Positions 2,508-5,893 of a stretch of 5,893 nt of DNA are shown in pieces. The notes under the pieces were generated by a model. It saw nothing but the letters and a program-made list of their open reading frames with translations, was not told where the DNA came from and made no database searches. Made by a program: the position numbers and the translations under genes. Origin of the DNA: a virus (taxonomy: Duplodnaviria; Heunggongvirae; Uroviricota; Caudoviricetes); the IMG/VR virus record IMGVR_UViG_2698536372_000022; one strand, written 5' to 3'. Within the stretch, counting starts at the first letter, position 1, and each line of letters opens with the position of its first letter.

Positions 2508-2537
2508 TTGACTTGAGATTCCTTGAGTGATTAGCAT
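2508..2537 (+). promoter_or_regulatory. Candidate rightward early promoter for the dicC-like operon
   Basis: TTGACT (2508-2513), an 18-nt spacer, then TAGCAT (2532-2537). The palindromic operator at 2537-2550 sits at the predicted transcription start. TTGAG half-sites recur at 2513, 2523 and 2537 with 10-bp spacing. Confidence 0.4.
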
Positions 2538-2791: not shown

Positions 2792-3296
2792 ACAGGCTCG
2801 TGAGGCTCTGGATGCCTGGATATGTCGACCAGGAATGACACAGGAGCAGGCGACGATATTAATCACTGAAGCATTCTGGGCTTTGAAAGAGCGCCCGAAC
2901 ATCGATGTTCAGCGTGTCACAGATGAAGGTGGCGCGGTTGATCAGCGAGCACTTGGCGTTAATCGAGTGAAGATATTCGAACGCTGGAAGGCTATCGACA
3001 CCAGGGATAAGCGTGAAAAGTTCACGGCGCTAGTGCCTGCAATTATGGAGGCTATTCGGATTAATGATTTCAGGTTGTATCGTGAAATTAGTGACGGAAA
3101 AAGCATCACGTACATGATCGCCGGGTTAAACAAAGAATATGGCGATGTGGTGGAGTCCGGACTGCTTTTTGCTGATCCTGCCGTAGTGGATCGTGAAACT
3201 GACGAACTTATAGAAAAAGCAATTGCTTTCAAACTTGCGTATCGACAGCAATACCAACAAAAAGCTGGATGGAATTATGAGCCTTCTTTTTGCTGA
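2775..3296 (+). CDS. ydaT: YdaT-family protein (PF06254-like; proposed CII-equivalent regulator, historically annotated as toxin YdaT)
   Basis: The N-terminus MKITPEQAREALDAW and the block KIFERWKAIDTRDKREKFTALVPAIMEAI follow the pattern of Rac YdaT as I recall it (MKI...RW...REK...L.PAI). It overlaps the dicC-like stop by 17 nt and lies in the cII position of the early-right operon. Confidence 0.8.
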   Translation: MKITPEQAREALDAWICRPGMTQEQATILITEAFWALKERPNIDVQRVTDEGGAVDQRALGVNRVKIFERWKAIDTRDKREKFTALVPAIMEAIRINDFRLYREISDGKSITYMIAGLNKEYGDVVESGLLFADPAVVDRETDELIEKAIAFKLAYRQQYQQKAGWNYEPSFC

Positions 3297-4242
3297 ACGC
3301 CCACTGGTTATAAACACACAGCTTGCGATGAAGATTGGCTTAAATGAAGCCATTGTGTTGCAGCAGTTGCATTACTGGTTGAGAGATACCAATTCCGGCA
3401 TGGAATGTGATGGTGTTCGCTGGATTTACAACACAACGGAACAATGGCTGGAACAGTTCCCATTCTGGTCAGAGTCAACGTTAAAGCGCGCGTTTGCAAG
3501 TCTGAAAACGCTGGGGCTTTTGCGTTGTGAAAAGCTCAATAAATCAAAGCGCGATATGACCAATTTCTACACGATCAACTACGGGAGCGAGCTTTTAGAT
3601 GGTGGCAAATTGAGCGAATCCATCGGTTTAAAATGCGCCGCTCCATCAGGTCAAAATGACACGATGGAAGAGGTCAAAATGAAACGCTCCATTGGTTCAA
3701 AACGACCCAATGTCATCGGGTCAAAATGGCCTGATGATCTTACAGAGAATACAACAGAGATTACTACAGAGAATAAAAACACTTTTCGTCCGGAAGCTTC
3801 GCAACCGGACCAGCAGACCGCTGAACAGGATTTTTTAACCCGGAACCCCGACGCGGTTGTGTTTAGTGCGAAAAAACGCCAGTGGGGTAGCAGGGAGGAT
3901 TTGGCGTGTGCGCAGTGGATTTGGGGGCGGATCGTGAACCTTTACGAACAGGCTGCCAGCGACGATGGAGAGATCATGCGACCAAAAGAGCCTAACTGGA
4001 CAGCCTGGGCCAATGACGTGCGCACAATGCGGATGCTGGATGGCAGAAGCCACAGACAAATTTGCGAAATGTTTGGTCGGGTACAGCGAGATCAATTCTG
4101 GGTAAAAAACATCATGAGCCCGTCAAAACTCCGCGAAAAATGGGACGAACTGGTCATCCGCCTGGGACGTTCACCTGTACAGCGTTGTGTGAATCATATT
4201 TCTGAACCGGATACAGAAATTCCGCCTGGTTTCAGGGGATAA
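3277..4242 (+). CDS. Phage replication initiation protein (O-like replisome organizer with C-terminal DnaT-like domain)
   Basis: From the ATG at 3277 the N-terminal region (MSLLFAERPLVINTQLAMKIGLNEAIVLQQLHYWL...) resembles the phage replisome-organizer N-domain. The C-terminal region (NWTAWANDVRTMRMLDGRSHRQICEMFGRVQRDQFWVKNIMSPSKLREKWDE) resembles the DnaT C-terminal domain. The central linker is encoded by iteron repeats. The gene overlaps the ydaT-like stop by 20 nt. The TTG at 3223 is a less likely start. Confidence 0.85.
   Translation: MSLLFAERPLVINTQLAMKIGLNEAIVLQQLHYWLRDTNSGMECDGVRWIYNTTEQWLEQFPFWSESTLKRAFASLKTLGLLRCEKLNKSKRDMTNFYTINYGSELLDGGKLSESIGLKCAAPSGQNDTMEEVKMKRSIGSKRPNVIGSKWPDDLTENTTEITTENKNTFRPEASQPDQQTAEQDFLTRNPDAVVFSAKKRQWGSREDLACAQWIWGRIVNLYEQAASDDGEIMRPKEPNWTAWANDVRTMRMLDGRSHRQICEMFGRVQRDQFWVKNIMSPSKLREKWDELVIRLGRSPVQRCVNHISEPDTEIPPGFRG
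3625..3728. repeat. Iteron array (5 copies of GGTCAAAATG-like repeat, about 23-24 bp period) inside the O-like gene; putative prophage replication origin
   Basis: GGTTTAAAATG at 3625, GGTCAAAATG at 3649, GGTCAAAATG at 3672, GGTTCAAAACG at 3694 and GGTCAAAATG at 3719. The protein linker they encode is correspondingly repetitive (SIGLK / IGSKRP / IGSKWP). Confidence 0.6.
3739..3790. repeat. AT-rich region with three ACAGAGA(A/T)TA direct repeats immediately downstream of the iterons (candidate DNA-unwinding element of the origin)
   Basis: Sequence cttACAGAGAATAcaACAGAGATTActACAGAGAATAaaaacac. It sits in the same position relative to the iterons as the AT-rich segment of lambda ori within gene O. 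Confidence 0.45.
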
Positions 4243-4282
4243 GTGTTGATTTTAGGGTATAAAGTAATGTTCAGGAGGACTT

Positions 4283-4702
4283 GTGGCAAAAGTTTTTACA
4301 CAAGAAGAGCGGGAAAAAATTAAAGGGCAGGTGGTGGAACTCGTACGCCAGAGTGGGCGCGAGACGTTACGACAACTGGAAGCTAAAACTGGGGCAACAA
4401 GATATCTGATGAGCGTTCTGGCCAGAGAGCTGGTTGCCAGTGGCGATGTATACAGCTCTGGTTACGGGTTATTCCCGTCTGAACAGGCGCGTAAGGACTG
4501 GCAAAACGCCCGCAAAAAACTCTCGAGGGCAAAGGTGAAGAAACCTGCTGTGGTTGATCCGGACCTTATCTGGTCATTACCTGACGGAGAAATACGTCGC
4601 TACGACAGTCGTCTAAACATAATCTGTCGCGAGTGCCGGAAGGCAAGGAGAAGCAGGCTATTGTTAACACCAAGCTGTAATGTCCCCTTTGAACCATTCT
4701 AA
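4283..4702 (+). CDS. Hypothetical basic protein (139 aa), function unknown; possibly a remnant of a replication/helicase-loader module gene
   Basis: GTG start at 4283 with AGGAGG 5 nt upstream. Product MAKVFTQEEREKIKGQVVELVRQSGRETLRQLEAKTGATRYLMSVLARELVASGDV... is lysine/arginine-rich with a possible HTH-like segment and a CRECR motif. A GC hairpin plus T-tract follows the stop. I recognise no family for it. Confidence 0.6.
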   Translation: MAKVFTQEEREKIKGQVVELVRQSGRETLRQLEAKTGATRYLMSVLARELVASGDVYSSGYGLFPSEQARKDWQNARKKLSRAKVKKPAVVDPDLIWSLPDGEIRRYDSRLNIICRECRKARRSRLLLTPSCNVPFEPF

Positions 4703-4707
4703 AATGT

Positions 4708-4734
4708 CCCCAGACAATTCTCTGGGGGATTTTT
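4708..4734 (+). terminator. Intrinsic-terminator-like hairpin (7-bp GC stem CCCCAGA/TCTGGGG, 6-nt loop, T5 tract) between the hypothetical gene and the transposase start
   Basis: CCCCAGA (4708-4714), loop caattc, TCTGGGG (4721-4727), then gaTTTTT (4728-4734). It ends 1 nt before the transposase ATG at 4736. It could equally be a structure at the IS end that blocks read-through. Confidence 0.35.
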
Positions 4735-4735
4735 C

Positions 4736-5830
4736 ATGATCAAAGAGACTGTTACGATGAGTCATAAGGAACTCCACCGACTTCAGATTATTCAGGAGTC
4801 AATTAATCGACATATTACTCAGGAACAAGCTGCGGCACGCATTGGCATTTCTATTCGGCAGGTTAAACGTCTGGTGCAACGGTATAGAAATGAAGGGCCT
4901 TCTGGTCTGGTTTCCCACCGACGTGGAAAGCGTCCTAATAATTCCTTTTCTACTGAATTCAGAGCAACAGTAATTTCACTCCTCAAAGGCCGTTACGCTG
5001 ATTTTGGACCTACGTTTGCGTGCGAAAAATTGCGCGAGATACACGGTTTATCTTTATCCGTTGAAACTCTCAGAAAGTGGATGATAGAAGAGGGGTTATG
5101 GCGTGAACGCCGTCGTAAAATTGCCCGTATATATCAACGCCGCATGCGACGACCATCTTACGGTGAACTGATCCAGATTGATGGCTCACCTCATGACTGG
5201 TTTGAAAATCGAGGCCCCAGATGTACACTGATCGTTTTCATTGATGATGCCACCAGTGCGTTGATGGCGTTGCGTTTTGTGCCTGCTGAAACAACCCGGG
5301 CTTACATGGAAACCCTCCGGGGTTACCTTAATGATCATGGCGTACCGCTCGCTCTCTACTCTGATAGACACAGTATATTCAGGGTAAATAACCCAGAGCG
5401 GGAAGGTGAGCTGACCCAGTTCACTCGTGCGATAAAGACACTGGGCATCGAGCCAATCCATGCCAACAGCCCGCAGGCAAAAGGGCGGGTAGAGCGCGCC
5501 AATCAGACACTACAGGACAGGCTGGTCAAAGAAATGCGGCTTCAGAATATCAGTGATATTGAAACAGCAAATGCATGGTTGCCGACCTTTATTGAAGCCT
5601 ATAACAACCGGTTCGCTACGTCGCCTCGTACTACTGATAATGCTCATCTTGATGTGCACCATTCTGAAGAGGAACTGGGTTATATCTTCAGCCTACAGGC
5701 GAAGCGCGTTCTGTCTAAAAATCTCACTTTCCAGTACAAAAGCAGTGCGTTTCAGGTACGCAGTGAGGGCCGGGGATATCGACTTAGGCATTCGGTTGTT
5801 ACTGTATGTGAGAACTTTGAGGTAGCCTGA
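4736..5830 (+). CDS. DDE transposase of the rve (retroviral-integrase-like) superfamily with N-terminal HTH; IS481/ISNCY/IS21-IstA-like
   Basis: The N-terminal HTH region reads AARIGISIRQVKRLVQRY. The catalytic core has the DDE arrangement: D in QIDGSPHDW, D in LYSDRHSIF, and E in the KGRVERANQ signature typical of rve transposases. Alternative start at ATG 4757 (MSHKEL...). The exact IS family is not resolved from memory. Confidence 0.85.
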   Translation: MIKETVTMSHKELHRLQIIQESINRHITQEQAAARIGISIRQVKRLVQRYRNEGPSGLVSHRRGKRPNNSFSTEFRATVISLLKGRYADFGPTFACEKLREIHGLSLSVETLRKWMIEEGLWRERRRKIARIYQRRMRRPSYGELIQIDGSPHDWFENRGPRCTLIVFIDDATSALMALRFVPAETTRAYMETLRGYLNDHGVPLALYSDRHSIFRVNNPEREGELTQFTRAIKTLGIEPIHANSPQAKGRVERANQTLQDRLVKEMRLQNISDIETANAWLPTFIEAYNNRFATSPRTTDNAHLDVHHSEEELGYIFSLQAKRVLSKNLTFQYKSSAFQVRSEGRGYRLRHSVVTVCENFEVA

Positions 5831-5881
5831 GTTTAACGGACACTCCTTCCTGAAATAGAATGGCATCAGAAGGAGCTAATA

Positions 5882-5893
5882 ATGAGCAGAAAA
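5882..5893 (+). CDS. Start of a downstream gene (first 4 codons, MSRK); possibly a second IS gene or passenger
   Basis: ATG at 5882 is preceded by AGGAG (5871-5875) at 6-nt spacing, 51 nt after the transposase stop. Only 12 nt are in the window. Confidence 0.3.

Follow-up and report, generated by a model that had tools for sequence, protein, structure and literature searches.

A probable replication origin within the initiator gene of a Qin/Kim-type lambdoid prophage, and a tandem 12-mer common to many phage origins

The DNA analysed here, hereafter the window, is a stretch of 5,893 nucleotides from a virus of the Caudoviricetes (IMG/VR record IMGVR_UViG_2698536372_000022), and it corresponds to the region for immunity and replication in a lambdoid prophage of Qin/Kim type from Escherichia coli. 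It contains an intact gene (3277..4242, + strand) for a replication initiator of 321 residues (PHROG 391, “replication initiation O-like”, 4.8e-93), the product of which is labelled “hypothetical protein” in RefSeq and is 99.4% identical to a protein of the phage record mEp460_ev081. The middle of this gene carries an array of iterons followed by a short AT-rich tandem repeat, and we estimate with a probability of about 85% that the segment 3597-3780 is the vegetative replication origin of the prophage, located inside the linker-coding middle of its own initiator gene.

The iteron array (3597..3736, unstranded) consists of six head-to-tail 23-bp units with the core GGTCAAAATG, which start at 3597, 3620, 3643, 3666, 3689 and 3713 and were recovered using a repeat finder, a motif scan and colinear relatives. 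The repeat finder returned five copies over 3607-3736 with start-to-start spacings of 23, 23, 23 and 24 bp, which bears out the repeats and the spacing described in an earlier note on this DNA; that note had counted five iterons, 23-24 bp apart, and the count is raised to six by a degenerate unit upstream (3597-3619, core TGGCAAATTG) that is in register with the sixth unit of the colinear relatives. The core itself is found exactly at 3649, 3672 and 3719, and with two mismatches at 3626 and 3695. Its raw count in the whole window is not unusual (9 matches with up to two mismatches vs. 7.8 expected), and the significance of the array rests on ordered spacing only. Starting from 3626, five units form an ordered chain in which neighbours are at least 8/10 identical at steps of 22-24 bp, while in 500 dinucleotide-preserving shuffles the longest chain was two units in 488 cases, three in 3 cases and four or more in none. 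Stacking the units over ten relatives gave a consensus that is a 23-bp palindrome around an A-tract (CATCrGGTCA-AAA-TGACCcGATG), and within the window the units at 3643, 3689 and 3713 show dyad symmetry at 8 of 11 positions around the central A-tract. A GATC (Dam) site lies between the last iteron and the first of the AT-rich repeats (3736-3739); most enterobacterial relatives have it too, though loci L021 and L023 have GTTC instead. No DnaA box was found within or beside the origin (the sole match lies at 4294), and the window yielded no rival origin candidate.

Directly downstream stand three tandem 12-mers of the form (T)ACAGAGAnTAC(A) (ACAGAGAATACA; 3741..3778, unstranded), which are AT-rich with a purine-rich top strand and constitute the candidate unwinding element. 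The repeat finder reported three copies of a 12-14-nt unit over 3741-3778, Tandem Repeats Finder a period of 12 with 2.8 copies over 3742-3775, and the motif ACAGAGAWTA had five matches with at most one mismatch vs. 0.54 expected, a number reached in none of 200 shuffles. The GC content dips to 27.5% at 3740-3779, in agreement with the claim that an AT-rich segment with three ACAGAGA(A/T)TA repeats follows right after the iterons. Nearest-neighbour energies place the least stable 37-bp duplex of the initiator gene at 3744-3780, with −41.3 kcal/mol vs. a gene mean of −50.8 (standard deviation 3.3), i.e., 2.9 standard deviations from the mean.

Together, the array and the 12-mers (3597-3778) sit between an N-terminal domain (residues 1-105; 3277..3591, + strand) and a C-terminal domain (residues 170-294; 3784..4158, + strand) of the initiator. 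The N-terminal domain is the presumed reader of the iterons, and its structure, modelled from an alignment of eight sequences, is a winged helix (predicted local distance difference test, pLDDT, 86; predicted template modelling score 0.78) whose predicted fold is closest to the RepA_N plasmid initiators, i.e., a winged helix of RepA_N/DnaD type. It has no Pfam match even at E ≤ 10, and matches neither Phage_rep_O (PF04492), which lambda O matches at 5.7e-36, nor RepA_N (PF06970), and a search of PDB sequences with a 30-sequence profile of the domain gave only insignificant matches to winged-helix proteins of PadR type. The family is large, with 10,302 representatives of 50%-identity clusters at E ≤ 1e-3 and 4,527 at ≤ 1e-10, and lacks both a Pfam and an NCBIfam model. 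Many of its members are proteins of 400-880 residues with two tandem copies of the domain (including L052, L053 and L055), and in L052 the iterons and 12-mers come after the second copy, with spacings of 12 and 9 bp. The residues encoded by the origin (108-178) are predicted to be disordered, with pLDDT below 50 and no secondary structure; the full-length AlphaFold model, built from a shallow alignment (pLDDT 54), was not used for fold searches.

The C-terminal domain was identified by tblastn and BLASTP as lambda-O-type: it aligns to the O proteins of lambda, phage 21 and Shiga toxin (Stx) phages (tblastn, 36.8% identity, E 4e-18) and to residues 135-270 of lambda O (BLASTP 2e-28), with identities of 34-37% overall. 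No usable Pfam family was found for the whole protein or for either half, the only matches being sub-threshold ones to Slx4 and YLR146W-A. Judged by homology, the initiator is lambda-O-like in its C-terminal domain only, so that the description of the gene as “O-like” held for that domain and did not extend to the N-terminal one. The protein ends in a short tail (VQRCVNHISEPDTEIPPGFRG; 4177..4239, + strand) that almost reproduces the very C-terminus of E. coli DnaT, with 15 of 21 residues identical to residues 159-179 of 179 in PDB entries 2ru8, 6aep and 9zbt, and a corresponding match to positions 160-179 of the NCBIfam DnaT model. These matches are individually weak (E 0.014-0.04) and share the motif SEPDxxIPPGFRG; they were the only ones returned when the initiator was searched against PDB sequences and against NCBIfam. 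Similar tails (IPAGFRG, VPAGFRS) end relatives with other C-terminal domains (L006, L004), and one also ends at least one initiator, that of L147, which has an N-terminal domain of another family. The role of the extreme C-terminus of DnaT is not described in the parts covered of a 2026 preprimosome paper, and a literature search for the PPGFRG motif returned unrelated primer and sequence matches only.

Since a repeat within a gene may reflect either the DNA or the encoded peptide, we compared the two levels, and four independent results indicate that the constraint on the repeats acts on the DNA and not on the protein. As 23 bp is no multiple of three, the array shifts the reading frame, and the iteron core occurs in each of the three codon phases (2, 1, 0, 2, 1 and 1) and yields unrelated peptides (SIGLKC, PSGQND and EVKMK). 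The repetitive peptide that the iterons had been said to impose is therefore not found for them, and is seen only for the 12-mers, which encode T-E-x-T repeats. Among ten colinear enterobacterial relatives, identity at codon positions 1/2/3 follows the usual protein-coding pattern in the N-terminal domain (0.87/0.93/0.57), while the corresponding values are 0.83/0.87/0.80 for the iteron array and 0.96/0.79/0.97 for the 12-mers, where 85% of third codon positions are invariant and the only base that varies falls at a second codon position. Of 75 Thr-Glu pairs in the linker zone of 32 relatives spanning several phyla, 62 (83%) use the codons ACA-GAG, vs. 10.7% expected from codon use elsewhere in the same genes. 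Finally, relatives from Bacillus, Hydrogenimonas and Taibaiella have off-phase copies of the 12-mer (those of Bacillus phage BMBtp2 are spaced by 11 and 10 bp), and in two prophages of Neobacillus niacini (L044, 1100-1250; L045, 1100-1245) the initiator gene does not contain the element at all: the iterons and CAGAGAnTAC repeats are found 270-400 bp upstream of it, where stops break all three forward frames.

Relatives that share the N-terminal ~105 residues have the same layout, with iterons just after the N-terminal domain: 3-7 A-tract-centred palindromic iterons at a spacing of 21-24 bp, and then 2-5 CAGAGAnTAC repeats. This layout was found in phages and prophages of Escherichia, Klebsiella, Providencia, Erwinia, Pseudomonas, Staphylococcus, Bacillus and Listeria, as well as in most of 43 genome loci that reach into Bacteroidota, Campylobacterota and Nitrospirae bins. 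The comparison across homologues that the earlier note had proposed as the refuting test thus came out in favour of DNA repeats, which are conserved as such from Proteobacteria to Bacillota. The C-terminal domains and the downstream genes vary among the relatives sharing the N-terminal domain (e.g., Staphylococcus phage 42E has a DnaB-like helicase and a loader, and Pseudomonas phage AF a primase/helicase). Other E. coli prophages match only from query position 577 (window 3776) on, and one of them (L057), which combines an unrelated HTH_36 N-terminal domain with its own TTGACCCGTCAA iterons, has the same C-terminal domain, at 86% nucleotide identity from around 3776. We therefore place a mosaic junction at 3776..3786 (unstranded), upstream of which the N-terminal domain, iterons and AT-rich element form one exchangeable cassette, and downstream of which the C-terminal domain is shared. 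Such an exchangeable pairing of N-terminal domain and iterons is the classical lambdoid arrangement. Within the family, residue 67 (codon at 3475), with which the predicted recognition helix starts, covaries with the base 5′ of the CAAA core: Ser67 occurs with T in 20 of 20 loci and Asp67 with G in 5 of 5 (among them a Bacillota-type locus and a Campylobacterota one), while Arg, Asn, Lys or Glu at this position go with other bases.

The 12-mers extend well beyond this initiator family. When viral contigs were scanned for exact matches to two adjacent 12-mers (ACAGAGAnTACnACAGAGAnTAC), at least 120 loci (L060-L179) were found. Among the matches listed, 65 loci have an N-terminal domain of the present family on the same strand, its end 82-214 nt upstream of the tandem, whereas at 46 of the 50 other loci the tandem lies 135-320 codons into an open reading frame (ORF) with a different N-terminal domain. 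These domains are Pfam-less and winged-helix-looking, each with its own A-tract-centred palindromic iterons (for example at L137, L142, L143, L147 and L152). Again among the matches listed, an iteron chain, defined as at least three repeats spaced 20-25 bp within 200 nt upstream of the tandem, was present at 96 of 115 loci vs. 1 of 120 control stretches; a lambda-O-type C-terminal domain was present at only 25 of 120 loci, and a lambda-type N-terminal domain at none of the 120. The tandem spans phages of Proteobacteria, Bacillota, Bacteroidota and Campylobacterota. The iterons thus diversify together with the N-terminal domain while the 12-mer stays constant across families and phyla, which is unusual for an unwinding element. 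Because the 12-mer is constant while the iterons change, a common reader is implied, which could be either a second DNA-binding surface conserved in the initiator superfamily or a component of the replisome that is universal. It is possible, and we propose it tentatively, that the tandem (T)ACAGAGAnTAC is a hitherto undescribed type of origin element that is sequence-specific and corresponds, in phages, to the 13-mers and DnaA-trios of oriC, and that the DnaT-like IPPGFRG of initiators without a P partner may engage host helicase loading. Searches for the iteron and 12-mer strings found no mention in the phage-replication literature that was covered, which does not include older subscription papers, and returned only unrelated primer and sequence matches; such silence is weak evidence that the motif is new. 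A search for mEp460 gave genome announcements only.

Three known systems come closest to this arrangement. The origin of lambda has four iterons (ATCCCTCAAAACGAGGGA and variants) with the centre TCAAAAYG and spacings of 20, 24 and 23 bp, and a purine-rich AT tract (ACAAAAGACACTATTACAAAAGAA...) on the same side of the iterons as the 12-mers of the window (PMC3349717; PMC7466680). As in the window, the origins of lambda and of the Stx phages P27 and 933W (six iterons) lie in the middle of the initiator gene and comprise 4-6 iterons that are imperfect inverted repeats, about two helical turns apart and with the TCAAAAYG centre, followed on the promoter-distal side by an AT-rich, purine-rich tract. 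They likewise have an origin-specific N-terminal half and an exchangeable C-terminal half of the initiator, with a homologous C-terminal domain. Of the features that define a lambdoid O/ori, the window has at least four iterons of imperfect ~18-19-bp inverted repeats about two turns apart, an origin between the domains, a promoter-distal AT-rich region and homology to the lambda O C-terminal domain, while a Phage_rep_O N-terminal domain (PF04492) and a gene for a P-type, DnaC- or DnaB-type loader immediately downstream are absent. This comparative evidence upholds the lambda-ori-type architecture that had been proposed for the gene. There are also differences. The N-terminal domain of lambda O, unlike that of the window, belongs to Pfam Phage_rep_O, the iteron arms are GGGTC/GACCC in the window and TCCCTC/GAGGGA in lambda, the units of the window abut without spacers, and its AT-rich part repeats a conserved 12-mer regularly in tandem. 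Lambda has the gene order O-P-ren, whereas in the window there is no P gene and a DUF977 (Ren-like) gene comes directly after the initiator, which, unlike lambda O, ends in a DnaT-like tail. The analogy with lambda is apt in design, though the DNA-binding domain belongs to a different sequence family.

The RepA_N theta replicons (the Gram-positive plasmids pSK41 and pTZ2162, and the RepA of the Vibrio cholerae phage-inducible chromosomal island-like element, PLE) are the second close system. In pSK41, the origin is central in the rep gene and encodes a dispensable linker between a DNA-binding N-terminal domain and a host-specific C-terminal domain (PMC5703833), and, as in the window, the N-terminal domain is conserved while the C-terminal domain varies. 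The window consensus agrees with the RepA_N definition given in PMC7145576, and its N-terminal domain has the predicted winged-helix fold without a match to the Pfam RepA_N model (PF06970). The two differ in that the element here is a temperate phage and not a plasmid, and has a lambda-O-type C-terminal domain, and the ACAGAGAnTAC tandem is not mentioned in the RepA_N papers PMC5703833 and PMC7145576. The third system comprises DnaD, the Gram-positive DnaB primosome proteins and the “DnaD-like” replisome organizers of phages; the N-terminal domain of DnaD does not bind DNA sequence-specifically (PMC7145576), unlike that of the window, which is tied to cognate iterons.

The surroundings of the gene agree with a lambdoid immunity and replication region. 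The prophage was identified as the Qin/Kim type, with dicA-dicC-dicF-dicB, because of the DicF small RNA at 842-893 (− strand; Rfam RF00039, 76.7 bits). The annotated gene order runs int-xis-exo-ydfD-dicB ... ydfA, a DicA-like repressor, cro, a YdaT/cII-like gene and the “hypothetical protein” that we consider the initiator, followed by DUF977, an insertion sequence (IS), ydfW, flxA and relBE-hokD. The cI/DicA-like repressor gene (2079-2537, − strand) is divergent from cro, and between them a consensus scan alone suggested a candidate pR-like promoter, TTGACT-18-TAGCAT (2508..2537, + strand), which would transcribe cro, the cII/YdaT-like gene, the initiator and the origin. Downstream, the DUF977 gene (PHROG “Ren-like”; 4283-4702) has lost its last ~18 codons to an ISEsa1/IS1202-like insertion sequence (4645-5893, transposase ORF 4736-5830), the transposase ORF of which is itself interrupted by the end of an IS600 near 5823. 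In terms of distribution, 3200-4300 is 100% identical to the chromosome of E. coli strain E2865, at least 80% of it is present in 1,745 of 5,426 complete E. coli genomes, and the allele is widespread, with a best match of at least 95% identity in 1,332 of 3,968 matching E. coli records.

The earlier note had taken the downstream replication genes to be disrupted, for which no support was found: DUF977 follows directly after the initiator in the window, in mEp460_ev081 and in other E. coli prophages, without a loader gene in between, and what the insertion removes is the ~18 codons of DUF977. No P, DnaC or DnaB gene was found after the initiator in the window, in its relatives among phage genomes or in other E. 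coli prophages, and since the phage mEp460_ev081 also lacks a loader gene, its absence is native and not a result of decay. The segment 3547-3810 is identical to the complete phage genome record mEp460_ev081, and PhiR42_1, a phage from ECOR13 that likewise has a complete genome record, carries the same initiator with an identical N-terminal domain and an identical origin. Because the module encodes no P-type loader, we propose, as a speculation, that the lambda-O-type C-terminal domain and the DnaT-like tail bring in the host DnaB-DnaC directly.

A sequence of events at the origin can be outlined from these features. Six contiguous dyad-symmetric iterons and promoter-distal 12-mers, which are the least stable duplex of the gene, are seen in the sequence. 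Dimers of the N-terminal winged helix would bind the iterons and form an O-some-like nucleoprotein complex, the stress of which would open the adjacent 12-mer region. The shared inheritance of the cassette and the covariation at residue 67 lend indirect support to such binding. Since the 12-mer sequence, and not just its AT content, appears to be under selection, specific recognition of this region is probable, most likely in its single-stranded form. More speculatively, the C-terminal domain and the DnaT-like tail would then recruit the host helicase and loader DnaB-DnaC. Rightward transcription from the pR-like promoter would cross the origin, as in lambda.

Other explanations of the repeats were weighed against an origin. 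The simplest, that they are merely a repetitive, low-complexity protein linker between two domains with no role as DNA, would fit the predicted disorder of the segment and the in-frame 12-mers with their T-E-x-T peptide; however, it is contradicted already by the codon-phase and wobble data, as the 23-bp period puts the core into three frames with different peptides and the repeats keep their wobble positions but vary at a second codon position. The preference for ACA-GAG (83% vs. 10.7%), the off-phase 12-mers and the element outside the initiator gene in L044 and L045 point the same way, and we give this explanation almost no credence. The array could also be a cis site with a role other than replication, such as autoregulatory operators, a packaging or partition site or an exclusion (incompatibility-type) decoy, read by the same or another protein, given that the iterons of other replicons also serve copy control and exclusion and that cloned lambda iterons inhibit incoming phage (PMC3349717). 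This seems very unlikely in view of the conserved low-stability element that adjoins the array, its position at the domain boundary of a replication initiator, its co-inheritance with the initiator N-terminal domain, the match to two experimentally defined origin architectures and the lack of any other origin candidate in the window. With regard to the 12-mers alone, they might be conserved mainly as a recombination linker for shuffling cassettes of N-terminal domain and iterons against C-terminal domains, rather than as an unwinding element, as the E. coli mosaic junction lies directly after them and the same tandem joins several N-terminal to several C-terminal domain families. We find this unlikely because second-order selection would hardly hold wobble positions invariant across phyla, and because the element is retained where it lies outside the gene, is a minimum of duplex stability and occupies the place of the AT-rich region of lambda, although the two roles are compatible with each other.

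The segment might also be an origin by descent but an inert relic, in a Qin-type defective prophage that has no P, DnaC or DnaB gene and in which an ISEsa1-like element, itself cut by IS600, truncates DUF977. This we regard as doubtful, since the initiator ORF is intact, 3547-3810 is identical to mEp460_ev081, the loader is natively absent there too, and the allele is widespread at ≥95% identity. Several points nevertheless weigh against a functional origin at 3597-3780. The host prophage is defective and IS-interrupted, so that its origin may never be used in this genome; every functional step, namely binding, unwinding and autonomous replication, is an inference; and five loci (L041, L048, L053, L055 and L056) have the N-terminal domain with no such repeats in or near the gene. 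The covariation between residue 67 and the adjacent base does not take shared ancestry into account and is a suggestive, candidate specificity code, and the proposed helicase recruitment derives from a 21-residue similarity with weak E-values and from the absence of a loader gene.

That an origin should lie within an initiator gene is ordinary for a lambdoid phage, and the surprise is instead that its 12-mers are common to many phage origins across phyla. The analysis assigns a function to a “hypothetical protein” that is widespread in E. coli, and locates the probable origin of Qin-type prophages and mEp460-like phages. The combination of an A-tract-centred palindromic iteron array with ACAGAGAnTAC repeats is a signature that finds phage origins in raw sequence, and the pairing of Ser67 with T and of Asp67 with G is proposed as a residue-to-base rule for this initiator family. 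The conservation of the 12-mers also raises the question of what reads the sequence of an unwinding element across phyla.

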